From Geosiphon pyriformis uo1 (Eukaryota > Fungi > Glomeromycota), in assembly GCA_016748015.1 (NCBI GenBank), contig JAAOMT010000046.1, positions 582,697 through 646,696 of the forward strand: 64,000 bases of DNA, written 5' to 3'. Within the stretch, counting starts at the first letter, position 1; each line of letters starts with the position of its first letter. The position numbers and the translations under genes were made by a program. Below, piece by piece: positions 12,278 through 51,700 of this stretch. A model generated the notes under the pieces. That model saw only the letters and a program-made list of their open reading frames with translations. It made no database searches and was not told where the DNA came from.

Positions 12278-12296
12278 TTATTCTCTCCTTTTAATA

Positions 12297-12950: not shown

Positions 12951-12984
12951 ATTCTTATATATTCTTTTGTCAATCAATTGGATA

Positions 12985-14354: not shown

Positions 14355-14416
14355 CTTTTGTTATATTTTTCGTTGGTATTGTTCTGGTTTTGTTATATTT
14401 TTGGGTTGAAATATTC

Positions 14417-16251: not shown

Positions 16252-16642
16252 CTGTTGATCTAAATCCCTGTATTCCTCTCGCTGTTATTCCTAATTTCTC
16301 TCTTTTTTCCACTGATACTAACTGAGCTACTCTAACCAGAGGCAGGAATATTGTCTGTGCTATCTTTTCATTGAGCTCTATTATATAGGTCTTTTCTGAG
16401 TCATTTTGTAGCATAGCGATGATATTTTCTATATATCTCATGTCAATTATTCCTCCTCTTATATTAATTCCTCTTTTCACTAAACTACTCCTAGATGCTA
16501 ATTGAACTATTGTTGTTACTAGAATTTTTAGTGCTACTTTCAGATCAATATAGGTGTGTGAATGTGGTTCCAATTTGATGGTCTCTTTTCCTGAATACCT
16601 CAGATCAAACTTGACATCAGTATCATGTACACATTTAGGCAT
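16252..16642 (-). pseudogene. dut: dUTPase domain within family B pol
   Basis: Trimeric dUTPase motifs: P.CVHDTDVKFDL (I), ASRSSL (II), GGIIDMRYIENI (III, decayed IDAGYxG), EKIAQ (IV), RGIQGFRST (V). Confidence 0.85.
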
Positions 16643-20642: not shown

Positions 20643-20682
20643 GTTTGAATTTGTGTTGGTGTTGGTTCTCTGTAGGATTATA

Positions 20683-20699
20683 CCTCACAGGGAGCACCA
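20683..20699 (-). promoter_or_regulatory. Primer binding site TGGTGCTCCCTGTGAGG, probably for elongator tRNA-Met
   Basis: Starts with TGG 2 nt after the LTR. The complement CCTCACAGGGAGCACCA resembles 3' ends of eukaryotic elongator tRNA-Met as I recall them. Confidence 0.8.
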
Positions 20700-20701
20700 A
20701 A

Positions 20702-21612
20702 TATTACAGGTAATTCTTTGGAATGTCGAGTAAATAACAAACCCATAACTTGGTGCTCAAGACGATTGGTAATGCTGATAATCTGAAGGTTTTTTAATTG
20801 AGTTCTTTGTATAATGGACAGAGATTCAATAGTAACAGTTTATCAGTAGTTTCCTGGCACCATAGTTTTGCCAATTGTTTGCTCAGCTTGATGGTTGATA
20901 ATTTTTCTGATATGATATCTTGCATAAGTGTATACTAGTATGGTTTCCTAATGTCAGTTCCTTCATAAGTTCTCCAAGAGTAAGTGTTGTTTAAGCAAGT
21001 TTATTTCTCTGTAAGTTCTCCAAGAATAAGTATTTTTTAGTAAGCTTTATTTCTCCATAAGTTCTCCAAGAGTAAATCTTTTAATCAAGTTAGTAGACAA
21101 CAAAGAAAATAAAGAAAGATAAAAAAGAAAATAAGAAATAAGCCAAGACGATTTGCAAGTTAATATCCCATCAATAGCCATGATCAAGAGCTATTGTTCC
21201 AGTATAGTTAAGTATTAGTTACCATCAACATGAAGTGTTGATAGTGGAGAATGAATTTGATATGGTGAATAATTATTTATTTGAGAATTGTGATAACTAA
21301 GCTAAGAATTCTTGGTGTTCCTCTTTCTTTTTCTGCTTTTAATGCTACTGCTATATATACATATTTGAGATTCTTCAATTTCTCAATTCCTTGTGACAAA
21401 AATTCTGGAATTCCTGGAATCCTGCAATTCCTGGTGAGAAGAATCCTGCAATTCTGGAATCCTGCAATTCTTTGTCAGAGAATCCTGAAATTCCTGGAAT
21501 CCTGCAATTCCTCTGAGAGGAATCTTAGAATTCCACATTTACTATGTCTATATTTGATTGGCTAATATCTACTGACTAATAATACTATATTTCCTATATT
21601 CTATGAGTAACA
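20702..21612 (-). repeat. Family B 5' LTR
   Basis: TATTACAGG (decayed TG)...GAGTAACA; adjacent to the PBS. Confidence 0.95.
21405..21535. repeat. Tandem ggaatcctgcaattcct-type repeats in family B U3
   Basis: Also at 12085-12200 with fewer units and at 23260-23370. Confidence 0.75.
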
Positions 21613-30019: not shown

Positions 30020-31231
30020 ACATTAGCAAAAAATTGTTGAAACTCTAAAGAAAAACTAGTCATTAAACCAATTCTTATGTAATCTAATCTAAATTAATCT
30101 TTTATTTTTTATATTGATATATTTGGCTTTAGACTTAGTGTTATTTTTTTTCAGAAAGATTAAAATAACAAAGAGCATATTATAACTTATGTCAGCTAAT
30201 TACTTTCTTTAGCAGAACAAAACTACTTAATTATTGAACAGAAATGTTTAGCAGTAATATGAACTACTAGTTATTAAAATAAATATCTTCTTGATACCAA
30301 ATTTCTGGTGATAACAGATTATTAAGTCTTGGTTTAGCTGTAAAAAAAAAAAGCTGAAACATAAATGAATAATTTGCTGGATACTTTACTTAGATAAATT
30401 TAACTATAATATACAATATTACAAAGAAGCTTATAATCAAAATATTAATATTTTTTTTAGACTTATTATCTAGTAATAATACAATCTTCTTAAACCAAAT
30501 CAACTTAATTATTAATAACTTCTTCTTAAAATAAACATGATAATAAACTTGGACAACTATTTTGTCTTAATAAAATTTTTGGATAAAGAACAATATTCAT
30601 CAAAATATACTTAACAGCAAAAAAAATATTTGCAAAAACAATTAAATTTCTATTTGATTTGTCAAAACCAATTATAAAATAAAAATAAAAAAAACACTAA
30701 TTGTTCTTAAAGAGTCATTAGATTTAAAAAATAAAAAATTGTAATTTACAATATATATACTAATTTATTAGCTAAACATTTTGAAAAGACTAAAATAATT
30801 CAAAAAATACTTGCTTATTATTATTAATTTATCTTAGAAAAAACATTGCTGAATATATTAAAATCTGTAATATCTGCCAAAAAAAAAAAACTCAATCACA
30901 AAAAAAATATTTATTTAATTTTTGTTGGGTAACTATTTAACAAAATTGGTATAAATATTGTTAAACCTTTAATTATAATTCCTAATAGCAATAAATACAT
31001 TATCACAACTATTAACTATCTTATAAAATAAGTAGAAACAAGAGTTATTTCAGATTAAACAGCAGTTTTTATTGTTAACTTTATTTATAAAGACATTATT
31101 TGTCATTATAACTATTGTTATAGGTAAACTGGTAGAGTATTGTTATGGTTGAAACCCATAATTTTTATTAGTTATCACATGTATTAGCCACTGATGTCAT
31201 ATAATTAACCATTCTATTTTTAGATAGTAAT

Positions 31232-31312
31232 CATTGATCTGATCAATGACCTGACCGTTGACCTGATCATTGACCTAATCATTGACCTAGTTGTTGACCT
31301 GGTCATTGACCA
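31232..31312 (+). repeat. 12-bp tandem repeat (ttgacctgatca-like) in family C U3
   Basis: About 6-7 units here. Copy number differs at 24645-24760, 38243-38285 and 56641-56695. Confidence 0.8.
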
Positions 31313-31883
31313 CTTTCATTAGCTATATAAGTAATGAGTCTCTTAGCTGTAGAAAATCATCTCTCAGACAAGAATTAAATAAATAAAAATAACAACTTTC
31401 ATCTCAATTACTCTCTTATCACTAATTTCCCTTTCTCTATCTTCAAGTATCTGAACATTTTAGGATAAAAGATTACTTGTTGGCCTTTTTCTGTTTGAAT
31501 AATTATAGTATTTGAAGACTATTTGTATAAACATGACTGAAGAGCACAAGTTGATACCTGATATTGAATTCTAAGAGTGTTAATGTGAAGGCATAGAATT
31601 AATACTAGTGGTGATCAATTGTTGATAGTACAGACTATCCCTCTACCTTCAGATTCTCTTGTTACTTTTTGAAAAGAATAGCGACTGAGATATTTTATGA
31701 AACTGATCTCGCACATTAAATCCATACTCATTCAATTCACTCATTGAAGTTGAATTCCCTTTGATTATTTCCATTACCCTACAATCCTGTTCTCCCTTGC
31801 TATCCGTTAACTTGTTACTTCAACCCGTAGCATAAAAGTGATGCTCTCTGTGAGGTTGTCAAAATCCATTTGTTTCTTTATTG

Positions 31884-33444
31884 TATGGGTGATTATTCAT
31901 ACCTACCACAACAATCAGCAGAACACTTTGAAGCACACAACAGAAATGATTTAGACTTTATTGAACTCAATCCTTTGCCATCCTGCTTAAATTGCTTCCC
32001 CCTTGAAGAACAATCCAGTAGACAATTCCAAAACTTTTGGAACTGGTTCCTGAATGAGCATTCAGCTGAAACCTACACAGTCTACACAATCTATTACTTT
32101 GACCAAGCTTACTTTGAAAACAACTTTGAAGAAAGAAACAACAATATCAATCAGCTCTTATACTTAGCAACCTTTGAACAACAACCTCCTGAATTCGAAT
32201 ATCTAAATTACCAAATTCACATCTGAATTGCTGCCCATCAATCAGCTGAAACCCTTTTTGAAACAGAAAAAGAAAGTTACCAAACCACTCCTATTTTTGA
32301 TTTCTTCTCAAATGATTCAGATCATTCCACTCAAACAGTAACTTTTGAACCAATGGCCCAAAATCCAATGCAAGCAAACATCCTAGCCACCCTCCAAGGC
32401 ATACAAACTGCTTTGGGGTAAAGAAACAACACTTTATTACCATTATTCAAAAGTGATACACAAGATTCAATTGAATGATTGGACAATTTTGAAAGAACAG
32501 CCACTGCCAACCAATATGATGATGAGTACAAGTTCCAAATCATTGGTGGCTACCTTCAAGACTCTTCTGCCATATGGTTTTCACAAGAAACCAATACCAA
32601 TGTCCAACACAGAATTATCAGATGGACACCAGCAGATGCAGGAGAAAACAATACCTTTTTCACTATCTGGTTTGAAAACAAGTTCAGAACCCCAATCTTA
32701 ATATCTAAATGGCACATAGAACTGGAAAAAAGAACCCAAGATCCTGGTGAAGTTGTAACTGAATATGCTAAAGCAATCAGAAAGTTAATCAAGTAAGTAG
32801 ACTCTGGAAGGAACTGAACAGAAGAACAAAAGATTCACTCCTTTACAAAAGGATTGAGAACTGACTTATCTTATGCTCTTTGGCCTCTTTTGGCTCTAAA
32901 AGACAACTCTACAATGGATATGGCTATTGAACTTGCCCAAAGAATTGAAAATAACCAAAGGATGCATCTGGAATCCACACTTCCAGTTTTTGCTTCTGCT
33001 CCTGTCATGGCCCCTGCTCCTCAAGTAGCTGCTACTTCTTTTGCTGCCCAAACCCAAGACCCAAATGAACAATTGATAGATAGACTCACAGCTAACTTTG
33101 CCCGGTTATTAGAACCATTGGCACAAGCAGTTAGAGATAACCAGCAACCACCAAGACTTAGATATGAATCTTGTTTTAACCAGTCCCAGCAACCTCCCTA
33201 TCAAAGACAGCAAAATCGTGGCCCATCTGTGTGCTATTGTTGTGGATTAACTGGACATTATTTAAGAGATTGTAACAATCCTCCACTGCCTCCTCCAGCT
33301 CCCAGAAACAATAACAACCAAAACAACAGACCCAACAACAACAACAACAATATCCTCAATCAAAGACTCAATCATGCCAACATCAATTTCTTTGAAGAGG
33401 ATCCCCTAGTTGAAGCCACTGTTTATTAGCCTTTAAACTGGTAG
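31884..33444 (+). pseudogene. C2 gag
   Basis: Capsid-like region (ORFs 32479-32796 and 32854-33429) and zinc knuckle CYCCGLTGHYLRDC. Natural stop TAG at 33442-33444. Confidence 0.88.
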
Positions 33445-33480
33445 GTGCATCTCCAAAGGGTAAGAGTACAAGCCAACCAG
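33432..33480 (+). promoter_or_regulatory. Putative -1 ribosomal frameshift signal (T TTA AAC plus downstream stem-loop)
   Basis: Heptamer is in gag phase, two codons before the gag stop. The -1 frame is the pol frame. Conserved in C1 and C3. Confidence 0.75.
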
Positions 33481-36122
33481 AAGAAAACCCTTTTTACATT
33501 TTTAACTTAACTGATGATAACCATGACATGGATGAACTAGCAATCAACACCTCAGAACCAACCAGAAAGAAGAAGAAAGCCAAAGTTAATTTCGTTCTAG
33601 ACACCAACAAAGCCTCAACTTCTGCTGCTGATAACAATGAGCCACCAAAGGCTAAAGTTTTTAAGAATCCTCCAAAGTTGAAACCCCCAGAAATTGTACA
33701 AAAATCTGGATCCTATTTTGTTGTCAAAGATTTCATGGAAACCCCAGCACATATTACCTTTGGCCAGTTAATGACCCATCTACAGTTCAGAAAGGATCTT
33801 CACAAATTCTTGATTCCAAAGAAGAAGACACCAAAAACCAACAAGCACCCTTGCCAAGCTGGACTTGCTGACAACAGCAATTTCACCCCTCTGATTTGTA
33901 AAGCCCAAGTGGCTGAATACTTTATTGACTTAATTCTGGACAGTAGATCATCTGTTAGTGTCATTGCCAAACACTTCTTGAAAGCAATTGGTAAAAAGAT
34001 TGATGAACCTTTCACCAGACCAATAACCAATGTACATGGTAACAAAAAGAAAGGACTGGATATTGCCAAAGCTGTTCCTGCCCGCATCAATGGAATTAGC
34101 ATTGAAACTGACATAGAAGTTTCTGAAGCCAAGAAATACACCATCATTGTTGGCAATGAATGGCTCAAGAAAGCAAAAGCTTTGCTTGATTATGAACTTT
34201 GTAAATTAACCATCAGATGTGGTGAGAAACCCATTGTGGTTAAGTGTCACCATTGGACAACTTCTCCAGTACCCAAACAAAACCAAGAAGAAGAACAATC
34301 AGATGAATCAGATAATAAAGAGAGTGATGAAAAAAAAGAACAAGAAGAGCAAGAAGAAACTGCTGAACTCGCCTATATCACCTTTACCAGCAATGGCAAA
34401 CCACTGGACAATGTTAAAGCAGACAAAGAAGAAATTATTGTAAATGGCAAGCTGATCTGCTGGTCTTATTATGATATTCTTAGAAGAACCTTTAAAAGAA
34501 AACCTGGCAAGAAAGCCAAATACAGTTTTTGGTGACATGGTCCTTGTGCCTGGTGTTAGTGCAACAAACCCTTGTATTCTCCAAGCGATGAATGCAAATC
34601 ATGCCTGATCTATTACAGAGATTGGGAACCAATTAGTTTGATACCCAGAGAAGAATTGAAAGAAGTACAGAAGTCTTTTGAGAATAAACCACCTGAGATC
34701 CAATTACTAATTGTAGAACAAAAAGAACCCTCCCCAGAAGAAAAAAAAATAGACATTGAAAATTTGCTGGCTAAAAATAGCCCAGTTATCTTCAAAGAAA
34801 GTAATATCCCTAGATGTACCCATGTAATACAACACACCATCACCACCAGAGAAACTTGACCCATCTATTTGAAGTCTTATCAATCTAATCGGTGCAATGA
34901 TGAGTTTATCAAGAAAGAGATAAACCAGATGAAAGAACTTGGATTCATACAAGAAACCAAGAGTGAATGGGCTTTTCCAGTTGTAGTGGTATCCAAGAAA
35001 GATGGAACACTATGCTTCTGTGTCGACTACCACCAATTAAATGCCATTACTGAAAGAGACATGTACCCACTTCCCAAGATTAATACAATGTTAGATTAAT
35101 TCAAAGATGCTGCTTTCTTCTTAACCATTGACTTAACTGCTGGATTCTGGCAAGTAGAAATGGATCCAAAAAGCAAAAAGAAAACTGCCTTCATTACCAA
35201 GTATGGTATCTATGAATTCACAGTCATGTCTTTTGGTCTCACCAACGCCCCTTCCACCTTTCAATGCTTAATGGATAAAGTATTTGAATCAGTCAAGGAA
35301 AACTTTGTTCTAGTCTATTTGGATGACATAATGATATACTCAAAAATCTGGGATGAACACCTGGAACATTTGCAAAAGGTTTTTGACCTCCTTAGAAATG
35401 CTGGCCTCAAGATCAACCCAATCAAATCTTTCTTTGGAAGACAATCCATCCAGTTCCTTGGTCATCTTATCACAAAAGATAGAATCTTTCCTGACCCAGC
35501 CAAAGTTGAAAAAGTCCAAAACATTAAACAACCAATGAACATTCATGAACTATGCTCTTTTCTTGGTTTGGCCTCTTATTATCGCAAATTTGTCAAGGAT
35601 TTCTCCAAAATCACCTCTTCTCTCAATCAGCTACTCAGGAAAAATGTCAATTACTATTGGGGAACACATTAGCAAAAAGTCTTTGAAACTTTAAAGGAAA
35701 AACTGGTTACAGAACCCATCCTCAAGCAACCTGATTTAGATCAACTCTTTATCCTTCACACTAATGCATCTGGCTTTGGACTTGGTGCTGTTCTCTCCCA
35801 GAAAGATGAAGATGGCAAAGAACATGTCATAGCCTATGCCAGTAGAACTTTTTCCCCAGCAGAACAGAACTATTCAGTTACTGAACAAGAATGTTTAGCA
35901 GTAGTATGGTCTACCAGTTACTGGAGTAAGTATCTTCTTGGTGTGAAGTTTTTGGTAGTAACAGATCACCAAGCTTTGGTTTGGCTGCACAACAAAAAGA
36001 GGCTAGAACACAAATGGATAACTCACTGAATACTCCACTTGGATGAATTAGACTATAATATTCAACATCACAAAGGAGCTAATCATCAAAACGCTGATGC
36101 TTTTTCTAGACTTATTATCTAG
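33432..36122 (+). pseudogene. C2 pol: protease, acidic and Cys-rich spacer, RT, RNase H (no dUTPase)
   Basis: LILDSRSSVSVI, FCVDYHQLN, YLDD, FLGLASYYRKF, TNASG, TDHQAL; ends NADAFSRLII**. Confidence 0.92.
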
Positions 36123-36186
36123 TAACAGAACAACTCTCTCAAACCAAACCAACTTAATTATTAGTAATTTCCCCTTTTTGACAAAC

Positions 36187-37423
36187 ATGATAATGGACTT
36201 GGACAACTACTCTGTCTTAATGGAATTTTTGGGTAAAGAACAATACCCACTGAAATACACATGACAACAAAGAGAACATTTGTGCAAACAATCAAATTTC
36301 TATTTGATTTGCCAGAACCAACTTTATAAAAGAAATAGAAAAGATTCTGACCGCCTCCAGAGAGTCATCAAATTTGAAGAAAGAGAAATTGTGATCTACA
36401 ATATGTACACTGATCCATTAGCTGGACACTTTGGAAAAACAAAAACAATTCAGAAAACTCTAGCTTACTATTATTGGCCTACCTTGGAAAAAGACATTAC
36501 TGGATACATCAAAACCTGTAATATCTGCCAAAAAAAATATTCATCCAATCTTTGTTGGTCAACCCTTTGACAGAATTGGTATAGATGTTGTTGGACCTTT
36601 AACAATAACTCCTAATGGCAACAGATACATTATCACAGCTACCAACTATCTTACAAAGTGGGTAGAAGCAAGAGCCACTCCAGACTAAACAGCAGTCTCA
36701 ATAGCCAATTTCATTTATGAAGATATCATTTGTTGCCATGGCTGCCCCAAAAAATTTTTATCTGACAGAGGAAGAGCTTTTCTTAGTACACTTGTTGAAA
36801 AACTTTGCAGAAAAATGGGAATACATCACAAACTTTTCTCTTCTTATCACTCCCAAACAAATGGCCTAGTGGAACATTTTAATAGAACACTATGTGAAAC
36901 CCTAGCCAAAACCAGCAAAGAAACAAACTTATGGAACAAAGTACTGTCTTCAGCTTTGTTTGCTTATAGAACTGTGAATTATGACATAACAAGTTATGAA
37001 TCCTTTTATCTACTCTATGGACGAATAGCAACCCTACCAATAGAAACTGACATTGAAACAATACCCTTTAAAGAAATAACAATAGGGAATTACAAAGACA
37101 TTTTGCAAAGAAGACTTGATACCATTCTTGACTCATTAGTAGAAGCATGGATAATTGCCTTTGAAAAGATAAAACAATTCCAAGAGAAGCTTAAGAAAAA
37201 AAAAACATATAAAACACCTTCCTTAAGTGTTGGTGACTTAGTTTTAGAATACCGTTCAGACAGAGACAATGTCTATAGTGATAAATTCTCTAGCTGGTGG
37301 AAAGGACCCTTTATAGTCAACAAAGTTTTGAACAATGGTTCTTATATTTTATAAGATTAATATGGAACAATCTTCAATGATTACTCTGTTCATGACACAC
37401 GATTCAAGAAATATCACAAATGA
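36187..37423 (+). pseudogene. C2 integrase, stand-alone ORF
   Basis: ATG at 36187/36193, DPLAGHFG..CNICQ, GIDVVGPL, QTNGLVE, WKGPF tail. Confidence 0.88.
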
Positions 37424-37428
37424 CTTGA

Positions 37429-38181
37429 TTGGTTATCTGTTGTGGTAATACTGACCTAAATGATCAACAAAAATCAGATATAAATAAATGTACCATTCCC
37501 AAAACAAAGATATCTTCAATTGACATGAACAATTATTTCCTAAATCAAAACATTCAAAATGCTTTCTACACTCTCCATAAGTACTGGATCAAAAATTATC
37601 CAAATGCTACTTTGACCATTGGAAAACAAACCACCATAACTGATAACAGTAGAACACATACTGTTATTAGACCAAAAAAAACCACTACCAGAAGAGAAAG
37701 AATTGGTAGCAAAATGGATAAGTATTTGCTGGAAAGCATAACAGCAGCAATACTTATACCTTCCATAACAATTGAAAAAACGATTAAGAAAATCTTGCCC
37801 ATAGACAAAAACTTGTCATATAGAAAACAACTAGAACTCTATAGTCATTTTGGTGAAATCATAGAAGAAATGAAGCTCATAAAGAAAACAACTTCAGAGA
37901 TACAAGTGGAAATTTTAAGCATTATATGTTTAGATGTTCCAAGAGTTTTGATCATTGCAAGAAGAGCCAAAACTCTTATACAAAGATTTGGTCTCTTGGA
38001 TACAAAGCTTATTTCATCTCAAGTACTATACACTCTATCCACAAAAGACTTCAACAAACTAGTTAGTTTTGAGTTAGACAAAACTCTTCAATTAGAATAC
38101 CCTATAAATAGCTTGATTTCGCCAGAGCTTAATCTCTTTGAAGAGGATGATGTTATGGTTGAAACCCATAATTTTTATTAG
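37429..38181 (+). CDS. C2 ORF3, unknown function; reads through the PPT into the 3' LTR
   Basis: 250-codon uninterrupted frame (first ATG at 37525). Degenerate copy in C1 at ~55860-56580. Confidence 0.7.
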   Translation: MVICCGNTDLNDQQKSDINKCTIPKTKISSIDMNNYFLNQNIQNAFYTLHKYWIKNYPNATLTIGKQTTITDNSRTHTVIRPKKTTTRRERIGSKMDKYLLESITAAILIPSITIEKTIKKILPIDKNLSYRKQLELYSHFGEIIEEMKLIKKTTSEIQVEILSIICLDVPRVLIIARRAKTLIQRFGLLDTKLISSQVLYTLSTKDFNKLVSFELDKTLQLEYPINSLISPELNLFEEDDVMVETHNFY

Positions 38182-39396
38182 TTATCACATGTATTAGCCA
38201 CTGATGTTATATAATTAGTCACTCTATTTTTAGATAGTAATCATTGACCTGATCAATAACCTGACTGTTGACCTGGTCATTGATTACTTTCATTAGCTAT
38301 ATAAGTGATGAGTTTCTTAGCTGTAGAAAATCATCTCTCAGACAAGAATCAAATAAATAAAAATAACAACTTTCAATCACTCTCTTATTGCTAATTTCCT
38401 TTTCCTTACCTTCAAGTATCTAAACATCTTAGGATAAAAGATTACTTGTTGGCTTTTTCCTATTTGAATAATTATAGTATTTAAAGACTATTTGTATAAA
38501 CATGACTGAAAAGCACAAGTTGATACCTGATATTGAATTCTAAGAGTGCTGATGTAAAGGCATAGAATTAATACCAGCAGTGATCAATTTTTGACAGTAC
38601 AGACTATCCCTTTACTTTCAGATTCTCTTGTTACCTTTTGAAAAGAATAGCAACTAAGATATTTTATGAGATTGATTTCACACATTGAATCCATACTTAT
38701 TCAATTCACTTATTGAAGTTAAATCTCCTTTGATTATTTCCATCACTCTACAATCTTGTTCTTTCTTGCTATCCATTAGCTTATTATTCCAACCTGTAAT
38801 AGTATAGTGGTAATGTTTGGTGCTCTAGCTTTAGGTTATCTTTTAAAATTGTCTGCTTTTTCTGCCATGTCAGTGTTATCAGTCTCTAAAGATCTATTTC
38901 TGGCTGTGAATTTATCCATTGAGTTCTTTGGTTATAAGGCACAGAGTTTGTCTTTCAATGTTTTCTGTAAATGTGAACTTTCTTCTCTGCACTAACAAGC
39001 ATAGTTGTTAGGGTCTGGCATTGTTTTTTTGCCCTTCTAATAAGCTACCAAGATAATATTAATATCCAAAACTTAAGGGAAGCTTCCTTTTTTTACCAGA
39101 CTATCACAAAGTCTATTCCAAGACAATCAATTTTTCTATATTGCCAATGACATCTGTCCCAGAACAAAAATAGGAAATACTGATTTTAATTTCAGTTAAA
39201 ATCTGTAAGATTGGAGAACATGAATTGGTGAATTGGATTTGGTTTTGATAATTTATTGTATTTCAGACTATGGATATATGATAAGTATATTACAAAGTAA
39301 AATTTATTCTTAACTAACTGTCTGACTTTTCAATTTCTACAACTACTTGCTTTTATATATTCTTTTGGTTTTACAAAATTGCTTTTAATTGCTTCA

Positions 39397-39483
39397 TTAT
39401 TGCTAGCTATTGCTCATTATTGCTAACTATTGCTTATTATTGCTAGCTATTACTTGTGTTTATTAGCTATTGCTTGTGTTTGC
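39397..39483. repeat. Tandem tattgctagctattgct-type repeats in family D U3
   Basis: Also at ~48315-48390. Confidence 0.7.
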
Positions 39484-39590
39484 TCTGTGTTATCTCGAGT
39501 TGTACCTTATTTTTCTTGTTATGTTTCTTTGTTACATTTTTTCATAGCTTTTTGGTTTTTTTCTACTTGGATAACATTATCTCTTCCTTT

Positions 39591-40253
39591 TTAAAATTGA
39601 GCTTCTGTGAAATCATCTATTTTAGCTAAGTTTGTGTTTTCTGTAAAGAACTCGAATGTTGCCTTTAGTATTGTTTTTTGTAGAACTTCAAATTGGGTGT
39701 TTGTCATCCATCCTATGTTGTTGACTGTGATAGTTTTCAGAGTTTTGTCTAGTAGTACCATTGGACAGTGTTTAAATGCTGAATATAGTCAGTATGTTGC
39801 TTTGTAGTATAAGTTTAAGTTGTTTCTTCCCACAAATTCTTTTACTTGTCTGTGAGCTTCTTTGTTGATTGTTCAACAGTTAAGATCTTCATATGGGCTA
39901 TCTAATCCTAATTATAATCCAATTTTAAATAGCCAATAGACAAGTGAAAGTTTTTTTTTTCATTTTTTTGCATTTTCAGGTGTTCATTCTTTTGTTACCA
40001 GCTCTGCTGTTTGCCTATTCAGACTCTCTCTTATTTTCTCAATTCTTACCCAATACAGTTTTATTTCTGTCATCTTTCCCTTCTCCTTAGCTGTGTCAGG
40101 TCCTATCTTTGCCATATCCCTTTTTCTTTTTCTTTCATAAGAATAGATTTGCTTGTAAGGATGGGACAGCTTAGTTCTAATTAAACTCTTGTCCATCTCT
40201 TTCTTGCTCCTATTCCTGTATCATATCTTTTTTTTATCAATTGTGATTTCTAT
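39591..40253 (-). pseudogene. Family D ORF3 remnant
   Basis: RQVKEFVGRNNL..KATY*LYSAF..P..LL....TIT.N....MTNTQFEVLQ aligns with B ORF3 RQLKQFVGKNNL..QAIYWLYMGF..P..LL....TVTSN....MTNAQFKELQ. Confidence 0.75.
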
Positions 40254-40399
40254 TTAAGCAGAAGATTGTTGAATTGCATCAAACAGTTGTTTCAAAAGTT
40301 GTAGAATTTAATCTGAAAGATTTATGTTAAAAAAGATTCTATCATTTTTTTGTTGTTTTCTGGGTGGTATATATATTTGAATTTTCCAATTTAATTTGC

Positions 40400-41777
40400 T
40401 ACATGTTGTCTATATTTTGATAATGATGATTGGTTCCAAATCTTGTGGTATATCTTCTGGTCTAATTAATAGAATTTGTGTTCCTAGTTGATGTACTGAT
40501 GACAATGACTGTTGTTTCACATGATAAATTTTTAATTGATTTCCATAAGCTACTTTCTTTAAAATTCTGTTTTCCAATTATAATTTGTAAGCTCTATTTC
40601 CTAAAGCTTTGTGTATATAGAATGGGCCATCCCACTTTGGGTTGAACTTTCTGTTTCATTGTTTTTCTGCTTTTGTACAATATAATAGTACTTGGTCTCC
40701 AATCTTAAATTTCATTGGTTGTTCAAGTAGGCAATTATCATGTCTTTTTTTTTTGTCGTTCTTGAGTATTACTAATATTGTCAGCTGCTATTCTATGATT
40801 GTTTTCTAATGTTTCCATTAGCTAATATATTTTTTGGTATAAGATATCTTCAAAATTTTTTTCGTTGATAATTTCTGTTGAGTAGGACATTATTTCTTGT
40901 TTAATAAATAACATTGCTTTTCTTCTATAGACTAATTCGAATAGTGTAAACTGTGTTGTATTTTGCTTTAATGTTTGATATGCAAAGAGTACTAAAGGTA
41001 TAAATAAGTCCTATTTTTGTTTATTTTTGTAACTTATTTTTGCTAATGCTTCACATAATGTCCTGTTAAACCATTCTACCAGTTCATTTGTTTGTAGGTG
41101 ATATGGTGATAATAGAAGTTGTTTTATACCAAAATGTTGATTTAATTCAGTTAACATAGTATTGACAAAATGTGTTCCTTGGTCCAACAACAGTTCTTTT
41201 GAGCATCTATATCTGTATATTAGATCTTGGTGTATGAATTTGGCTACTGTTTTGGCGTTAGCTACTTGGATTGCTCTGGTTTCTGGCCATTTTGTAAGAT
41301 AGTCTATGGTTACTACTATATAACAATTTTCTTTGGATGTAATTGAGAGAGGACCAACCAAATCAATCCCAATTCTATCAAATGGATTTCCAACTGGAAT
41401 GGGTCAAAGTGGTTCTGTTATTTTGGCTCCTCCCTTTTGCTGGCATGAGTCACAATTAAGAACATATTCGAAGATATCCTTATACATTGTAGACCAATAG
41501 TATAGATTTGTTGTTCTTTCCAAAGTTATGTCTTTGTTGAAGTGTCCTGTAGTTGGATCGGAATGCATACTATATAATATAGCTTCTTTTTCACTGTCCT
41601 TGATCAATTGTTGTGGGGTGGTGTGGTTTTGTTGTTCTCAATAATAGAGTTGGCTATTTTAAATAAAGTAATTTTGTGTTTGTTCCATATGGTATTTTGT
41701 TTCTGTTAAGATAATATCTCTTTGAAATATAGTGTCAATAGATACTGATGTAATTGCTAATAAGTAAGTATATCCAT
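40400..41777 (-). pseudogene. Family D integrase, stand-alone ORF (3' end approximate)
   Basis: Own ATG (MDILTY), HSDPTTGHF..CDSCQ zinc motif, GIDLVGPL..IDYLTKWPE core, KWDGPFY tail. Confidence 0.88.
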
Positions 41778-41787
41778 GGGTTTGAGA

Positions 41788-43060
41788 TTAGGTTTGTGGT
41801 ATCCCCAACAAACTGTTGGCATTGGTGTTCTTGAATTCTTTCTTGTAGTAAATCTTGAGTGGGAATTGTTGTAGATAAGTACTCCATCTTACATATTTTC
41901 CTTTCAACTATGGGTTATTGAGTAACCAGATGAGTCTCTTATGATCAGTATATAGGTCAAATGGTTGCCTGAGGTAGTGTTTCCATGTTTGTATGGCCCA
42001 ATAAATAGCAAGGGATTTTAAATCTGTTGTGCTATATATTTTTTCTGCTAAGCTGGTACTGCGACTGGTGTAAGCAATTGAATGTTCTCTTCTGTCTGGT
42101 CTTATTTGTAATAATACAGTTTCTAGTGCATTTTTTGATGTATCTGTAGTAACAATGAATCATTTGGTGAAGTTAGGATAAATCAGTATTGGAGATGTAA
42201 TTAATTGCTGTTTAAGATAGTTGAAGACTTTTTGTTGCCCTTCCTTTTACAAATATGGTATGTATTTTGATAACAAGTGATGAAGGGGTTTTGTGATAGT
42301 TAAGAATTCTTTGACAAATTGGCAGTAGTATCTAGCCAGTCTTAAAAATCTTTATAGCTCTCATAGGTTGATTGGGACTGGAAAATTCTTGACCTTTTGG
42401 ATTTTGTTTAGGTCAGATTTTACTCTGTCTTTGCCGATCACATGTTCTAAGAATTTCAGTTTGGTTTTTCTAAAGAAGCATTTATCAGGATTGAGTTTTA
42501 ATCCAGCATCTCAAAGGTGTTCGAAGATTTGTTACAAGTAGAGCAAATGTTTGTCGAATGTTTCTGAGAAGACATTGGTATCGTCTAAGTATACTATGAC
42601 TGATTTTCATAAGATGTTGAAATGTAGCAGGAGTATTGCACAGTCTAAAAGGCATTACATTGAATTCAAAATTTCTGTCTCAGGTAGTGAATGCCATTTT
42701 CTCTTTATCTTTCAGGTTCATTTCGACTTGTTAATATCTACTGGCCAGATCTAGGAATAAAAACCATTTCTTTTTTTCTAAGTTGTCTAGGATTTCTTAG
42801 ATAAGAGGAGTGGAATAGCTATCTCCTCAGGTAACACTATTTAATTTTCAGTATTCATGCAGAATCATACCTTTCCATTTTTCTTGGTAACTAAGACTAC
42901 TGGAGAGAACCAAAGGCTTAATGATTCTTTAATCAGTCTATTGTCAAGCATTCGTTGTACTTCCTGCTTAATCAGATTATTTCCAGATGGAAGTACTCAA
43001 TAAGCTTGCTGCTTAATAGGTCAAGCATCTCTGGTGTCAATCTGGTGTTTCACAATGTTA
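41788..43060 (-). pseudogene. Family D reverse transcriptase and RNase H
   Basis: VYLDDTNVFS, FLEHVI, TDTSK, YTDHK; ends NANSLLGIPQT*. Contains a frameshift/deletion. Confidence 0.85.
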
Positions 43061-43580
43061 GTGCACTCAAACTCATTTTTGCTGGCAAAAACATCGGCAT
43101 ATTGGTTCAATAGAATCTTAAGTTGCATTTGCTGTAAAGTGTTTAGGTTTTCCAAATTGAGTTTATTGATTTCTTTTGGTGTGAACAAGTAACTTTTTTT
43201 TTGGCAGGTTCTATACTTGTGAGGTAATGTCACAGAACAAGAACAATTGAGTGAAATCTGGAATGAGCTGAGGTTTTTCTGGATTTTGAATATTTGAAGA
43301 TATGGAACTAATGAGAGTTCTCTCAGGAATTTTGATAATGTCTTCAGTCAGATTGTAGATGAGAATTTTAAAGTGTTTATGAGCTTTGGCTGGTAAATAC
43401 AGGTTAGCAATATTGGCTAATAAACAGATCTTAGAATTGGTCTCAAAGACTAGTGCTTGGTTCTAAATTTTTGAGAATATACTGCTGATAAAAAGGGATG
43501 GAAATGATGGTATCAGTATAGATAAGTTCTACCTGGTTACTATCCTTCTCTGTAAAATTGACTGTTATGTTTCCTTTTTT

Positions 43581-43972
43581 ACTTGAGCCAAACCCCTTGA
43601 TTCCTCAGACAGTAAGACCTAATTCTTCTCAGATGATAACCAGAGCTAGTTGGGATATTTTGACTAAAGGTAGAAAGATGGCTTGGACAATTTTTTCATG
43701 AGATTCAATCTTGTAGAGTTTGTTTGAATTGTTTTGTAGTATCACGATAATGTTTCCCATATATTTAGCATTGATAATTTTTCCTTTTACATTGATTCCT
43801 TTCTTTGTAAGGCTCAATCTAAATGCTACTTGTATCATAGTGCTAATAGGAATTTCTAGCACTATTTTGAGATCTATTTTTACCAGAGAATATGAGGCTA
43901 TAATTATGGGTAATTGTCTAGGGTATCTTAATTCAAAATCTACATTGGTTTCATGTGCTTTTTCTGGGCATA
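43581..43972 (-). pseudogene. dut: dUTPase domain within family D pol
   Basis: PEKAHETNVDFELRY...GINVKGKIINAKYMGNI...EKIVQ...*GIKGFGSS. Confidence 0.8.
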
Positions 43973-46900
43973 TTTCTTTGTTGTTGTTACTGTATCATTT
44001 TAATTCCAATTTTTTGGAAAGGTCAGGATACACAAGATATTGTTCTATTTTGGTAGTCTGATTTGGCTCCTAAAATAACATGTTCTTGACAAGTAATTCC
44101 TCTTCTTTTTCAGGCTCAGGTAATTTGGTGATTGGATATAGGATTTTGGAAAGCAGGTTGAACATGAGATCACACTTGTTACAATATTGAAAGTGGCAAG
44201 GAATTAAGCAGTAATCGCATAGTTTGGTATTTAGATCAACTAGCTACTGTTTTTGCTCTTCTTGGGTCAGGCCAATTCTTGATATTGGTTCTAAAATACA
44301 TCAGAATCATTTGTAAAGAAATTATCTGCAGGGTAGTCAGGTCTATTATATTTGGGCATCCAAGAGTTGTCTTTGATTTCTCATATTTCTTCGGACATGG
44401 CACTTTTAGCTTTGGTGCTTACTATTCTCCAAATTTCGTGATTATTGTGTGAATAGCCATCAAGCCTATTGAGTGTTTATTTCCAAGTGTCCTCGATGGG
44501 AGTTCTCTTTTGTACTCAATTGTTGATTAATATGGTGTACTGACAAGTCTTGTCACATGTTCCTCCTCTGTTAGGCACATTATTCCAGAGTCCTTCATTG
44601 GGCAGAATCTTGCCACATGCAAGGCATGGTGTGTTATCCCACTTGCCTTGTTATTTTAGTCATCCAAATCTTTTCAGTAAACAAAATCTGCAGTAGTATT
44701 TGGTAATGGTGGGCAATTCTTCATTGTCTTCGATACATGTACCTATAGTGAATAGCTTCTTTCCACAATTGACACATATTAGTCTTAGAGGTTGGTAAAA
44801 TAAATTTTTTTGGTCCGAGGTTACATATCCTAGTGATGACAATTGGAGTTCTTCTTTGGCTCTGCCTTTTTTTTTTTTTTTCAGGTTGGTGGTAGTTTAG
44901 TTTGATAATTATTCATCCATAAAACCTAATAGATCTTGATGGTCAGTGGTAATGGTGCATCTTCAAATTCAATAAGAGGTTCCTTAGTATATTGGGTTTT
45001 AAAGTGTCCGCACATAGCTGGGACTCAGGCATACTGTCCATTAAACATGAGTTAAAGTTCTTGGGCGCTCTAGTCGAGAGTAGCATTGGCTTTTGACAAC
45101 CAATCATTTCCTACCAGAGCTTGATATTGAGTAGCTTCCATGATGAGTACCTTAGTAGGGATCTGAATTCCATTAATCTCAAAGGGGAAGTTGTCAATTT
45201 CTTCTATTGGGGTTTTTGTGTTTCCATCCACTATAATGATCCAGGCAGTAGCAGCACGGTCTACTCAGTGACTTAGTTGGTCCATAAACTGCTTCGTGAT
45301 TATGCTATCAGCTGATCCACTATCTAGGATTAATTTAATGTCTATTCTTCCAACTCTGACATCAGTGTATAGGGCCGTTATTAGTTTATCTTGATTGATG
45401 GCTGCTCCATTAAAAAGGCTATGGGTGTTTAAATTATTAATGTCAAAAAGAAATATGGCAGCTAGAGTGGTGTCCTCAATAATAGTAACTGGTGGGATAT
45501 TACTTTTTGTTGGCTTGGAAGGTTGGGAGATTTGTTCTATATCCCTCTCTTCCACAGGTATAGATTTATCAAAGCTTTGGTCTTCCATAAGACTGAAGTA
45601 GAAGGCTTGATTCAGGTATCTGGTTGGTGCTGGTTGAAATTGGGCAGGACTGCAAGGGATTGGTCGAGATGATCCACTGTTAATTTGTGCCTGATTGTTG
45701 TTGGAATTCCTCTATCCTTGATTATAGTCTATGGCTCAAGATTTGGGCTGGCTGTAAGGAGAAGTTTGATAGTGAGAGATTGTTTGTGTTATTGGTGATG
45801 GTTAATAATAATTTCAGAGCAGTAGTTGAGTATATGGGACTTGTTGTACATGGGGCAGTTGATTTTAAGGTATAGAATATTGAAATACCATGTTTTGCTA
45901 ATATCTTGGTTGCTGATATTAGTTTCTTTGAGTTTGGTTCATCATCTTTTTTCTGCAGTCACAAACAATGTGTTCAGGTTTTTGGCAATAGTAACAGTTA
46001 CAGGGATCGGATTTCCAAGGTTGTTGCTGTTACTAATGGTTCTGTTGCTATGAGTATCTGCTGTTATTGTTATTTTCTCTTTGTTATGGCAGTTGGTAAG
46101 TTTCTGTGGTTCTGGCTAAGAATCCCTCAATTTTTTGAGTTAATTTCTCACTTAATTGGGTTATCTTTGCATTAATGTTAGAGGTTTTATTGATAACTAA
46201 ATTTACAGCTTGGGTATAGTTCACTTCTTGTTCTGCAGATTCAAAATCACAAGTGAGAGTGACTGTTTCTTGTAGGTTTACCAGATGGCGAGGTCATATG
46301 GATCTTAGGAGACTGCTCTTTAGTCTTTTAACAAATTGATTAAGAACTTGCATAGTGGTATAATAATTCTGCTTAATGGCTAGGATTTGTCAAAGGATCT
46401 GATTGAATCTTCTGAAATAAGTAGTTACTGCTCCATGGTCATTTTGTTTTATTATACTGAATTGATTTTGCAATTGAATGAGTGTATTAGGGTCACAAAA
46501 ATATTGCAGAAATGCAAGTTTAAACTCTGTAAAGGAGGTAGGTTTCTCTGTAAGACTCTGATATTATAAATTGGTAGTTCCAGTCAGAAAAAATGGCAGT
46601 GCCTAAATTATGTGGTCGTCATTCCAACCATTAACAATAATTGCTTTTTCGGCATCCACAATCCAAGAATATGCATTATCTTTTTTACCAAAGAATTTTT
46701 CCAATTTAGCAATATTCTAGTAAGCCATGATCTGGTTAATGAGTGGGATGTTACTAGTTACATTTAAGAGGATTGGTGTCCACATATTCGAGTGTTCTCT
46801 GGGTGCTAATGCTGGTTGCTTTTCTTTGTCATTTGAACCAATAGGTTGTAAGATAACTGTTCCTTCTATCAGAGAAGATACTGATTCTGCTGGGTTTTAT

Positions 46901-47574
46901 GTTGGTGGCTGTTTCCAAGTTGACATATTTCCTTCTGTTTGACTGGCTGTTGGGGTAAGATTTCCAAACAGCAATCCGTATTCTCTTAGTGATTTGGTCC
47001 AATTGTGTTGACCCCAAGAGTGTGGATTTCCAGAAGTATGTAGTGTTTCCAACTGGGTTTCCGGGAGTGGATTGAATACAATTCTACTTTGGGGTGTCTG
47101 ATAATATGAAGGAGTTGTTGGTGAGAGGAACCTTGGTTTTTTGTTGACTGTAGATTTGTCTTAAGCAGTTGTGAAATTATTGGATCCATCCTCATATTCC
47201 TTCAGATCAAATTCTACTGGTTGTTGTACTTGAGGGAATTATTTTGTCATATAGTGTTTAATGTCCATATCAATTATGCGTAGAGTTTTAATGATTGCTT
47301 AAGTAGTAGTAATTGTTAAGTACCCTAGTAAGCTTTGATGGATTTGTTCTTCAAATCTTCCTGTATCAGTTGCACAGCCTAACAAGCAGTTGATTTTTGT
47401 GTTGATATAGTTGCAAAAATCATTTTCTGCAATGGTGGTTTCTGCTGGTATTTCTAGATCTTTTCAAAAGTATTGAAATAGTGCTCTTTTATATGAGAAG
47501 TGGTCCTTTTTTATTGTTTTAATAGTTGCCACTTTTGTGTATCTCTGGGGTGCTCTGTCTCTGTGGATTTATAA

Positions 47575-47591
47575 CCTCACAGGAAGCACCA
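47575..47591 (-). promoter_or_regulatory. Family D primer binding site TGGTGCTTCCTGTGAGG
   Basis: 2 nt from the LTR; one mismatch to the family B PBS. Confidence 0.8.
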
Positions 47592-48779
47592 AATATTATA
47601 AGTAAACTGAATAGAGTATAATGATAATGTTTGGTGCTCTAGTTTTGGGTTATTTTTTAAAATTGTTTGCTTTTTCTGCCATGTCAGTGTTATTAGTCTC
47701 TGAAGGTTTATTTCTGGCTGTGAATTTACCCATTGAGTTTTTTGGTTATAAAACACAGAGTTTGTTTTTTATTGATTGCAATATTTTCTGTAAATGTGAA
47801 CTTTCTTCTCCATGCTAATGAGCACAGTTGTTAGGGTCTGGCATTGTCTTTTCGCCCTTCTGATAAGTTATCAAGATAATGTTAATATCCAAAACTTAAG
47901 GGGAGCTTCTCTCTTTTACCAGACTATTACAAAGTCTATTCCAAGACAGTCAATTTTTCTATGTTGCCACTCCAAAAAAAAAAAAAAAAAGAATTAGTTT
48001 TTGTTAATTATCATGATCAAGAGCAATTGGTTCAAATCATTAAGGGTTCGAGGCATCTATGCCAATGGCATCTGTTTTAGAACAAAAGTAGAAAATACTG
48101 ATTTTAATTTCAGTTAAAATCTGTAAGATTGGAAAACATAAATTGGTAAATTGGATTTGGTTTTGATAATTTATTGTATTTTAGACTATGAATATATAAT
48201 AAGTATATTACAAAGTAAAATTTATTCTTAACTAACTGTCTGACTTTTTAATTTCTACAACTACTTGCTTTTATATATTTTTTTAGTTTTACAGAATTGC
48301 TTTTAATTGCTTTACTATTGCTTGTTATTGCTAACTATTGCTTGTTATTGCTAGCTATTACTTGTGTTTACTAGCTATTGCTTGTGTTTGCTCTGTGTTA
48401 TCTCGAGTTATACCTCATTTTTCTTGTTATATTTCTTTGTTATGTTTTTTCATAGCTTTTTGGTTTTTTTTTACTTAGGTAACACTGTTCTAAAGAACTT
48501 TTATCTAACAGAAAAAGAGTTTTTTTTAGTATATTGGTTGAAAAACTTTGTAAAAAAATGAGAATACATTATAAACTCTTTTTTTTTATTACTTTTAAAC
48601 AAATAACTTAGTGAAACATTTTAATAGAACACTATATAAAACCTTAACCAAAACTAATAAAGAAACAAACTTATAGAACAAAATACTGTTTTCAGTTTTG
48701 TTTGCTTATAAAATTGTAAATTATAACATAACAAGTTATAAACTCTTTTATCTGCTCTATAAATAAATGACAATTCTAT

Positions 48780-51700
48780 TGTTATGAGTTAAAGTAACAA
48801 GCTAATGGATAGCAAAAAAAAACAGTATTATAGGGTAATAGAAATAATCAAAGAAAAAATTACAATAGGGAATTATAAAGATATTTTGCAAAGAAAATTT
48901 AGTACTATTCTTGACTTATTAATAGAAACATGAATAATTGCCTTTAAAAAAATAAAACAGTTCCAAAAAAAGCTTAAGAAAAAGAAAATTTATAAAACAT
49001 TTTTCTTAAGTATTGATAACTTAGTATTGAAATATCATTCAAATAAAGACAATATTTATGATAATAAATTCTCTAGCCAGTAAAAAAAACTTTTTTTAGT
49101 CAACAAAGTTTTGAACAATGGTTTTTATATCTTATAAAATTAATATAAAACAATCTTTAATAATTACCCTATTCATAGTATATGATTCAAAAAATATTAC
49201 AAATGACCTAATTGGTTGCTCATTGTGGTAATATTGATCCAAATGATTAAAGTAATAAAATAAATCCACTATCAATTACTTTCTCTTATATTATTTATTC
49301 CCTTTTTTTCTATCTTTAAGTATCTGAACATCTTGAAATAAAAGATTACTTGTTGGCATTTACATACTTTATCTTTTTTTTTTCTTAATTTGTATTGTAA
49401 AAATTAGCCTAAAAAGTAATTGTTTGTTTTTGTAATTTATTGAATAAAAAAATGATTAAAAAATACAACAATAGCTATTATTAATTCTAAAAATTGCTAA
49501 GTTGAGGCATAAAATAATAGCAGTGGTGTTATCTTGTTAACAATTAAAGACTATTCTTCTATCTTCAGATTTTCAGAAAAAATTTACAACTGTGATTTTT
49601 ATAAGACTGATCATACATATTGAATTCTTACTTATTTAATTTGCTTTTCTATTGTAATTCTCTTTTTAATTATTTCTATCACCTTATAATACTGTTTTCC
49701 TTTGCTATCTATTAGCTTGTTACTTCAATCTGTAACATAAAAGTGGTGCTTTCTGTGAGATTATCAAAATCCATTTTGTTTTTTATTGTATAAGTGATTA
49801 TTTATACTTGCTACAACAATCAGAAAAACACTTTAAAACACATAACAAAAATGATCTAGACTTTATTGAACTTAATTTTTTGCCTTTCAGCTTGATTTGC
49901 TTTCTTATTGAAAAACAATTCAGTAAACAATTCCAAGACTTTTGGAACTGGTTCCTAAATAAACATTTAGCTGAAACCTACATAACTTATATAACTTATT
50001 ACTTTGACCAAGCTTATTTTAAAGACAACTTTAAAGAAAAAAATAACACTATTAATTAGCTTTTATATTTCACAATCTTTGAACAACAGCCTCTTGATTT
50101 CGAATAACTAAAATACCAAATTTACATCTGGATTGCTGTCTACCAACTAGCTAAAATCTTTTTTGAAACAGAAAAAGAAAGTTATCAAACTGCTTCTGTT
50201 TTTGATTTCTTTTCAAGCAAATCAAAACATTTCACACAAACAGTTACTTTTGAATTAATGGTTAATGACCCTATACAAGCAAACATTCTGACTGCCCTTC
50301 AAAGTATACAAACTGCTTTAAAATAAAAAAACAACACCTTATTATTATTATTTAGAGATGATGTATAAGATCCAATTAAATAATTGAATGACTTTGAAAA
50401 AATTGTTACAGCCAACCAATATGATAATAAATACAAATTCCAAATTGTTGGTGGCTATCTTTAAGGCTCTTTTGCTATTTGGTTCTTACAAAAAACCAAT
50501 GCTGGTGCTTACCAAAAAATTATTAGATAGATATTAGCAAATGCTGAAGAAAACAATATTTTTTTTATTATCTAGTTTGAAACAAAATTTAGAACTCCTA
50601 TTTTAATATCCAAATAATGTATAAAATTAAAAAAAAGAACCCAAAGTCTTGGTAAAATTGTAACTGAGTATGCCAAAGCAATTAGAAAGTTAATCAAATA
50701 GATAAACTTTGGAAAAAACTGGACAGAAAAGCAAAAAATTCACTTCTTTACAAAAGAATTAAGAACTAATTTCTCATATGTTTTTTGGCCCTTCCTGGCT
50801 CTTTTTGGCTCTAAAAAACAATCTCATAATAAACATGGCCATTGAACTTGTCCAACAAATTAAGGACAATTAAAGAATGCACTTAGAATTCACACTTCTA
50901 GTTTTTGCTTTTACTTCTGTTATGACTCCTGTTTTTTAAATAGCTATCACTTTTTTTGCTGTCCAGACTTTAGATCCCAATAAACAATTAATATATAGAC
51001 TTATAGCCAATTTTGTCCAGCTATTAAAGTTCTTAGTCTAAGTAGTTAAAAAGAATCAACAATTCTAAAGACCCAGATTTAAATTCCATTTTAATCAGCT
51101 CCAGCTATCCACTTATTAAAGACAACAAAATCATGGCCTATCTATGTGTTATTGCTGTAGATTAATTGAACATTTCTCTAGAGATTGCAACAATCTTTTT
51201 TTGTTTTCTTTAGCTTTTAGAAATAATAATAACCAAAACAATAAAACCAATAACAACAATATTCTTAATTAAAGATCCAATCATGCCAACATCAATTTCT
51301 TTGGAGAGAATTTTCTAATTGAAGCCATTGTTTATCAGTCTTTAAACTGGTAGGCACACTTCCAAAAAATGAAAGTGCAAGTTAACCAGAAAAAAACTTC
51401 TTTTATGCTTTTAACTTAATTAATAATAACCATAACATAAATAAACTAGCAATTAACACTTCTAAATTAACAAGAAAGAAAAAAAAGGCCAAGGTTGATT
51501 TTGTTTTGGACTTAAACAAAGCATTTATATTAATTGCTAATAACAATAAACCATCAAAGACTAAAGTTTTTAAAAATTCTTTAAAGTTGAAATTCTTAGA
51601 AATTGTACAAAAATCTGATCCTTATTCTGTTATCAAAGATTTCATGGAAACCTCAATTCATATTACTTTTAACCAATTAATAACCCATCTACAATTTAGA

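Follow-up and report, generated by a model that had tools for sequence, protein, structure and literature searches.

Ty3/Gypsy retrotransposons (Metaviridae), the closest described systems to the elements considered here, carry long terminal repeats (LTRs) around gag and pol, and Gag-Pol fusion is the accepted way in which integrase (IN) enters the particle of an LTR element. Essential enzymes that are expressed apart from Gag or reverse transcriptase (RT) and brought in non-covalently occur in the foamy viruses, where the whole of Pol is made from a spliced RNA, and in the DIRS/Ngaro elements, where the enzyme is a recombinase (in DIRS a tyrosine recombinase, in elements without canonical LTRs). 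This study deals with a window of 64,000 nucleotides (nt), the whole stretch of DNA analysed, from the fungus Geosiphon pyriformis uo1 (contig JAAOMT010000046.1, positions 582,697 to 646,696). It contains decayed Ty3/Gypsy-type elements of three families (B, C and D) in which pol ends after RNase H (RH), IN lies in a gene of its own and a further open reading frame (ORF), ORF3, follows.

The elements resemble Ty3/Gypsy members in their LTRs around gag and pol, a primer-binding-site (PBS)-like site, a purine tract and the order gag, protease (PR), RT, RH and IN. Ty3 was also the best PDB match of the window-lineage IN (E 1e-52), which shows a YPYY-type N-terminus together with H2C2 and DDE. They differ in that IN is outside Pol, that the additional ORF3 has its own TATA box, and that some members carry a dUTPase or long tails after RH. 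Unlike in chromoviruses, no chromodomain (PF00385) was found at the IN C-terminus among the 120 closest INs listed. In Ginger1 transposons and GIN1-type genes the integrase is likewise Gypsy-like, free and initiated at a Met; it starts at the YPYY region and contains H2C2 and DDE, but the present IN sits in an LTR retroelement with RT upstream, without terminal inverted repeats and, among the same 120 INs, without an OTU/Ulp1 domain. The YPYY-integrase groups were named by Bao et al. (2010; PMC2836005, available part), and in the accessible text of PMC2774666 five int states concern position or loss, with no separate cistron after RH.

Coupled termination-reinitiation offers a second comparison. 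In the accessible literature it is described for the victorivirus HvV190S, the hypovirus CHV1, caliciviruses, SART1 and LINE-1 ORF2, with which some of the present elements share overlaps of the UAAUG, AUGA and AUGnUGA types; further likenesses are short gaps rich in A and C, comparable to the 63-nt spacer of LINE-1, and structure 3' of the stop as in SART1. The difference is that here an integrase of an LTR element is concerned, known from sequence alone. No account of an LTR element whose IN forms a cistron of its own was found in the accessible full-text literature, nor in the available portions of bioRxiv 2021.03.30.436303, PMC13465315, PMC5751038 and PMC3248453; these families, or a note on them, could be contained in Repbase, in GyDB, in subscription journals or in the repeat library for arbuscular mycorrhizal fungi (AMF) of PMC11952901, in whose accessible text 'integrase' occurs 0 times.

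Separate integrase genes in intact relatives

The separate IN gene is a real and lineage-defining organisation of Glomeromycotina-type Ty3/Gypsy-derived elements. The split is established because intact, open relatives, which were compared in place of a family consensus, are divided at the same place as the window copies. A sequence-only reading of the window had proposed a multicistronic gag-pol / IN / ORF3 element with IN as a separate gene, and this arrangement is supported by the intact relatives, with IN split off at 34 of 35 informative metagenome loci and absent from 93 of the 99 closest RT-RH proteins listed.

The 1296 candidate proteins searched with the IN core were 157-503 aa long, a length filter that favours stand-alone forms, and 684 of them matched at E 1e-20. 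Of the 120 matches listed, 107 had a locatable H2C2, and in 84 of these a Met start lies 60-78 residues before its first His. Geosiphon pyriformis supplied the closest named match (78% over 53% of the query), the remaining close ones were all from Rhizophagus or Cetraspora, and all named matches belonged to Glomeromycotina. When longer IN forms were sought, 616 matches were obtained among 4071 candidates (120 listed); three AMF gene models ranked at the top and all others were no more than 45% identical. A search for longer forms with the RT-RH of family C listed 120 matches of 4084, of which 21 plant, algal or animal gene-model rows were set aside. IN was missing from 93 of the 99 closest RT-RH proteins thus listed; 67 of the 99 end within 30 aa of the RH end (mode 3) and 26 have tails of 76-406 aa, some possibly being shortened by contig ends. 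The six proteins with IN comprise three R. clarus models and three that group with or near fused outgroups.

The metagenome DNA scan, confined to the best 80 of 504 IN-encoding stretches, revealed an RH end upstream of IN at 35 loci, 34 of them split and one fused; no RH end was detected at the other 45, which are mostly on short contigs. The fused locus (L062) has a GC content of 52%, and its RT falls inside the fused clade with a support of 97. Eighteen of the 34 split loci have no stop within either matched region. Two whole elements (L005 and L023) are open throughout, with a gag-pol of 1612 and at least 1434 aa, an IN of 424 and 418 aa, and an ORF3 of 143 and 147 aa, respectively. A third, L039, also shows the whole open architecture and has LTRs that are 97% alike. 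The long gaps of L016 and L022 represent a premature stop in the pol tail. A scan of viral contigs gave 14 pattern matches, none of which was confirmed.

Several further observations were made on the relatives. Long tails of 76-587 aa take the place of IN after RH in L005, L014, L023, L035 and L039 and in proteins P0334, P0351, P0353 and P0251; the P0251 tail contains a NUDIX domain, and by eye some tails in R. irregularis resemble a P-loop kinase domain. ORFs inserted between pol and IN were seen at L043:1142-1399, at L080:181-972, before position 1234 of L033 and before position 484 of L034. Ten contigs (L001, L002, L008, L011, L014, L023, L026, L028, L048 and L057) continue from IN/ORF3 into a gag-like frame, and are either tandem copies or assembly paths through one LTR.

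The junctions in the window

In every family RT and RH domains lie 5' of the junction and H2C2 and rve domains 3' of it (Pfam). Family B (14354-14419, minus strand) has its pol TAA at 14419-14417, a 62-nt spacer and the IN ATG at 14354; in family D (41777-41790, minus strand) TAA at 41790-41788 is followed by a 10-nt spacer and the ATG at 41777. Both junctions are as the sequence-only reading gave them. Its general scheme of a pol stop after RH, a spacer and a fresh ATG holds for the stops and spacers of all families, and fails for the ATG in the third copy of family C.

Family C required more revision. TAG TAA is indeed present at 30471, 36120 and 53971, but it is not a tandem stop of the family. 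Genomic copies were read from contigs of one DNA run, to which this within-genome survey is limited and of which 22145 were placed on the highly repeated family C; position 36120 is mostly CAG in them (10041 of 14726 depth, 41 contigs), while the codon at 36123-36125 remains a stop, as either TAA or TGA. Similarly, the ATG at 36187, previously taken as the IN start, has become a codon of ACG/ACA type in a sizeable fraction of the copies (36188 T>C, 53129 of 115041 depth), whereas for the ATG at 36193 no variant is listed at 8%, and this codon aligns with Met1 of P0001, the nearest homologue that is intact (60% identity over 115 aa). The first TAG (at 36120) and the ATG at 36187 are thus decay products, and the real pair is the stop at 36123-36125 and the ATG at 36193.

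In copy 2 (plus strand), pol with PR, RT and RH (RVP_2, RVT_1 and RT_RNaseH; 33432-36125) ends 4-5 codons past the RH end motif, the profile reaching position 430 at 36110, and the decayed CAG and true stop occupy 36120-36125. The 67-nt spacer (36126-36192) is unstructured (minimum free energy -1.9, z 0.3) and contains neither a TATA box nor a match to the hairpin RNA model described below. The separate, decayed IN gene (36193-37483, 3' end approximate) shows a YPYY-type N-terminus, H2C2, DDE and a GPY/F-type end, with a frameshift near 36530-36540. A fresh ATG had been claimed for all copies; the junction of copy 1 (30471-30552, plus strand) retains only the non-conserved one, and that of copy 3 (53971-54049, plus strand), where both ATGs have decayed to ATA, has none within 100 nt. 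The IN of copy 1 is broken near 31110 and resumes near 48465-49250.

The distances of 66, 67 and 63 nt, from which it had been argued that the frame is not conserved, say little because they reflect indels between dead copies. Moreover, the IN frame of copy 2 is open across the spacer and back into the RH end, and therefore the window alone cannot exclude a frameshift; the frame argument holds on the relatives only. That decay alone would place three stops within 4-6 codons of the RH end has a chance of about 5e-4, given each copy's in-frame stop density.

Expression of the integrase gene

The reading favoured here, with a probability of roughly 0.6, is that of a split Ty3/Gypsy-derived lineage in which ribosomes would terminate on pol and then reinitiate at the IN AUG of the full-length RNA, and ORF3 would be transcribed from its own internal TATA promoter; reinitiation at IN, taken by itself, seems probable to about the same degree. 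A hairpin found in one subclade may help (re)initiation at that AUG, and IN would join the particle or the cDNA non-covalently, most likely via co-assembly where one RNA is both translated and packaged. The sequence-only reading had offered reinitiation, subgenomic RNA or splicing as routes for IN. Reinitiation appears to suit IN best, a subgenomic transcript would fit ORF3 instead, and splicing fared poorly. The other packaging route for which that reading saw a need may be required.

Overlaps between the pol stop and the IN start were found at 9 of the 34 split loci, solely at -1, -4, -8, -11 and -14. These spacings match the classes of coupled termination-reinitiation given in the available part of PMC5972666 (UAAUG, AUGA and AUGn(2,5,8)UGA), which argues for reinitiation at IN. 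The ORFs inserted ahead of IN at L043, L080 and L033 (85, 263 and 238 aa) stop on the IN AUG at -8, -4 and -4, and stop-start distances of no more than 14 nt are found at inserted ORFs as well as in window family D. ATGs are scarce in the spacers, with 8 seen against 18.5 expected in 19 spacers of 20-200 nt, and a purine occupies position -3 of the IN start in 52 of 60 loci (a set that leaves out L058, L062, L066 and L068). The window spacers of 62 and 67 nt are close to the 63-nt LINE-1 spacer, for which reinitiation has been proposed (PMC5972666, in the part available).

The TATA boxes point in the same direction, with ORF3 and IN of the same loci compared as an internal control. At -100 to -25 they precede ORF3 at 18 of 24 loci (2.8 expected) versus 10 of 45 for IN (6.0 expected), with a Fisher p of 3e-5 that is optimistic, as the loci are related and this interval was chosen after the hits had been seen; the counts leave out seven IN loci that are near-duplicates and one ORF3 whose start had been adjusted by hand. 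Two other intervals gave 21 of 24 versus 11 of 45 and 15 of 24 versus 6 of 45. All three ORF3s of the window have a TATA box and their INs have none at -100 to -25. A TATA box before ORF3 and not before IN suggests reinitiation as the likely route to IN and a promoter of its own as the likely source of ORF3.

Immediately 5' of the IN AUG, a hairpin in which a purine-rich bulge of 11 nt separates two stems, the second of them with a bulged A, was recognized at 18 loci by pattern (e.g., L005:5194-5232 and L023:4465-4500) and at 20 by model, which adds L073 and, weakly, L010. Among 16 sequences, and in the RNAalifold register, pairing holds for 91% of cells and compensatory changes were seen in 9 of 14 pairs, a level that none of 500 shuffles reached (slid controls 0-4). 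The hairpin is limited to one IN subclade (support 98). Rfam gave no match for 13 loci at E up to 1, and the covarying hairpin is a new small RNA structure. In SART1 a structure downstream of the stop takes part in reinitiation (PMC10275272, available part). The CAG of the hairpin was considered as a splice acceptor and ruled out, since L008 reads CGG with a compensating change in the partner.

Several points weigh against this reading. The gap measures 24-943 nt in 25 of the 34 split loci versus the 14 nt or less typical of coupled reinitiation (PMC5972666, in its accessible text), window families B and C also exceed about 14 nt, and a bridging ORF that ends near the IN AUG is missing from both L039 (727 nt) and L012 (365 nt). 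As a difference from the known coupled systems, no pseudoknot or element like the termination upstream ribosome-binding site (TURBS) was identified upstream of the stop, where the sequence is conserved RH coding and no separate test was run. The hairpin is thermodynamically weak (mean z -0.5), its model has no match in the window, and it is absent from most subclades. IN may also have a TATA-less internal promoter, and deep branches are weakly supported in both the RT and the IN tree. Finally, a free IN needs an extra explanation, because IN supplied in trans failed to rescue cDNA synthesis in Ty3 and Ty1 (PMC5371799, available part).

Two alternatives keep IN as a separate gene. It could be read from its own subgenomic RNA, made from a TATA-less internal promoter or spliced from a 5' donor, as that of ORF3 likely is; the good context of the IN start, the long gaps at most loci and the evident use of an internal promoter for ORF3 would all agree with this. 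Against it, TATA boxes show no excess before IN, AG just before the IN ATG was found at 1 of 60 loci with no fixed acceptor position outside the paired hairpin, and a subgenomic RNA leaves both the confinement of overlaps to -1 to -14 and the coupling of inserted ORFs unexplained; we regard this route as unlikely. Internal entry on the full-length RNA, independent of pol termination and with the hairpin as a small element like an internal ribosome entry site (IRES), seems more doubtful still. The restriction of the hairpin to the 0-30 nt upstream of the IN AUG, and its compensatory changes, could be so explained, but it is confined to one subclade, about 45 nt is small for an IRES, and the downstream structure of SART1 serves reinitiation rather than entry (PMC10275272 and PMC5972666, as far as available).

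The other two would make the split only apparent. An intron, a frameshift or readthrough might restore an ordinary Pol polyprotein from RH and IN, and the sequence-only reading had itself named two contrary results, an unbroken frame across RH and IN and an intron that is conserved; both were sought in the relatives and not found. RT-RH is joined to IN in five AMF gene models (P0121, P0122, P0336, P0345 and P0352), but these use three different junctions, all delete the RH C-terminal motif, and three of them are close copies of a single family. The last 16 RH codons contain no conserved GT donor, and the single AG among the 60 loci leaves no conserved acceptor. Although the IN frame is open over the spacer in window copy C2 and at 4 loci, these are 4 of 25 non-overlapping gaps where 5.2 are expected by chance, and pol-IN frames 0, 1 and 2 all occur (9, 14 and 11 loci). 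Splicing, frameshift and readthrough are unsupported by the sequences and for the most part refuted as routes to IN, with a very small chance left to them. Least credible of all is that the stops reflect decay in dead copies of once ordinary elements: all window copies are decayed, and the first TAG and first ATG of family C are decay products, but young, open relatives are divided at the same place, which refutes this reading.

Public AMF gene models (P0121, P0122, P0123, P0336, P0345 and P0352) splice pol, IN and ORF3 into fusions without conserved residues. Gene predictors make false fusion genes of these elements, and an rve ORF that stands alone in these fungi can be wrongly classed as a Ginger transposon or a host gene.

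ORF3

An ORF3-related ORF of 120-270 aa was found in about half of the loci with sequence 3' of IN, and 25 were aligned; the resulting profile recovered 611 clusters at 50% identity. The predicted model is all-helical (pLDDT 96). No Pfam family is common to the members, Foldseek gave no match at E 0.001 in PDB or BFVD, and the best VIA Z was 4.7. On the predicted model, the fold searches show neither a new nor a known fold; ORF3 is a conserved and new protein family, predicted to be helical, and does not appear env-like by these searches.

In the window, ORF3 of family C copy 2 (37525-38181, plus strand; profile E 7e-23, the copy itself being in the alignment) has its stop within the 3' LTR and a TATA box (37479-37485) 46 nt upstream. 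TATA scan and profile place those of family B at 12297-12961 (minus strand; TATA box 12961, ORF3 12297-12950). In family D (39624-40375, minus strand) a TATA box at 40375 precedes an ORF3 remnant at 39624-40345 (profile E 1.5e-4, copy absent from the alignment). Another ORF3 relative lies at L008:1596-2042.

Relationships of the split elements

FastTree trees were built from 228 RT rows and from 147 IN rows subsampled from 312, and included no named reference clades. Split elements stood apart from the main fused group in both, with a few long-branch fused rows unsure, and the nearest fused relatives were Gypsy-type polyproteins. Constraining the split rows together gave likelihoods above those of the free search (approximately unbiased test, p-AU 0.59 for RT and 0.65 for IN, on 50 and 46 chosen rows). 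A single origin of the split elements may be considered, being neither rejected by the RT or IN tree nor demonstrated. Grouping of IN with two Ginger1-like proteins, labelled by their OTU/Ulp1 domains, had a p-AU of 0.48. In 48 chosen full-length INs, M1, H71, C108, C111, D138, D198 and E234 are invariant; YPYY was judged by eye.

We tentatively raise the possibility that IN is a free Ginger1-like transposase of a polycistronic LTR lineage, made by reinitiation (RNA-aided in one branch), never fused to RT, and reaching the cDNA by a new route that perhaps involves ORF3. If this were true, the lineage would provide a living intermediate that links Gypsy retrotransposons with Ginger1 DNA transposons. 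The split organisation in itself supplies a plausible step for the Gypsy-Ginger1 transition that the available text of Bao et al. (PMC2836005) leaves open. A successful lineage without Gag-Pol-IN fusion would mean that the packaging rule has exceptions, and is a natural setting in which to ask how IN finds cDNA. It would also give an example, in a fungal retroelement, of reinitiation that follows a very long ORF, and it adds a protein family and a small RNA structure that are both new.

Other features of the window

Positions 1-56 kb are AT-rich, CpG-depleted and filled with nested repeats. The CpG depletion stops at 56000, and at 56000-64000 a host gene with introns shows BEACH/kinase-like frames (by eye). 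From 12 read-through frames Pfam recovered gag, PR, RT, RH, H2C2 and rve in Gypsy order for the three families: C (plus strand, three copies), B and D (minus strand, one each). Their LTR pairs are 85-91% alike and every copy is dead, stops taking up 4 of 429, 8 of 429 and 8 of 278 codons of the RT-RH frames. The RIP-like decay (RIP, repeat-induced point mutation) at which the sequence-only reading hinted is not needed, as CpG depletion with C>T/G>A changes fits methylated Glomeromycotina repeats.

In family C copy 2 (plus strand) the 5' LTR (31141-31829) starts with TGTTA and is 85% identical to the 3' LTR (38151-38798), which a purine tract precedes. A decayed PBS-like motif (31839-31855, plus) recurs in families B (20699, minus) and D (47591, minus), always a few nt from the LTR end, and presumably resembles the 3' end of elongator tRNA-Met. 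Decayed gag with a CCHC knuckle lies at 32353-33444 (Retrotrans_gag E 2e-4, under the curated cut-off). Sites of -1 frameshifting follow an X XXY YYZ rule, and the TTTAAAC heptamer at the gag/pol overlap (33432-33438) is likely such a site, judging by its sequence. A gag/pol overlap at a TTTAAAC-type heptamer was also seen at L001:4432-4483; L005 and L023 have a single gag-pol frame.

The family B element spans 11370-21612 (minus; LTRs 20704-21612 and 11370-12277, 88% identical) and that of family D 38801-48484 (minus; LTRs 47615-48484 and 38801-39576, 87-91% identical). A dUTPase lies between PR and RT in both, at about 16642-16253 in B (minus, Pfam) and at 43629-43994 in D (minus, by eye), and likewise in several relatives (P0271, P0280, P0310 and P0331). 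Element ends, inspected for target-site duplications of 4-5 bp, are too strongly decayed to show one. Copy C2 and element D are nested within the IN gene of copy C1 (31110-48490), and an LTR-like piece breaks the IN of copy C3 (55010-55470). By eye, a decayed LINE-like element with ORF1 and RT-like frames occupies 5089-11165 (plus). DDE-transposase-like frames occur at 225-1087 and 1364-2417 (plus, by eye), and 3' of these lie a remnant IN end and a weak ORF3 match of a further element.

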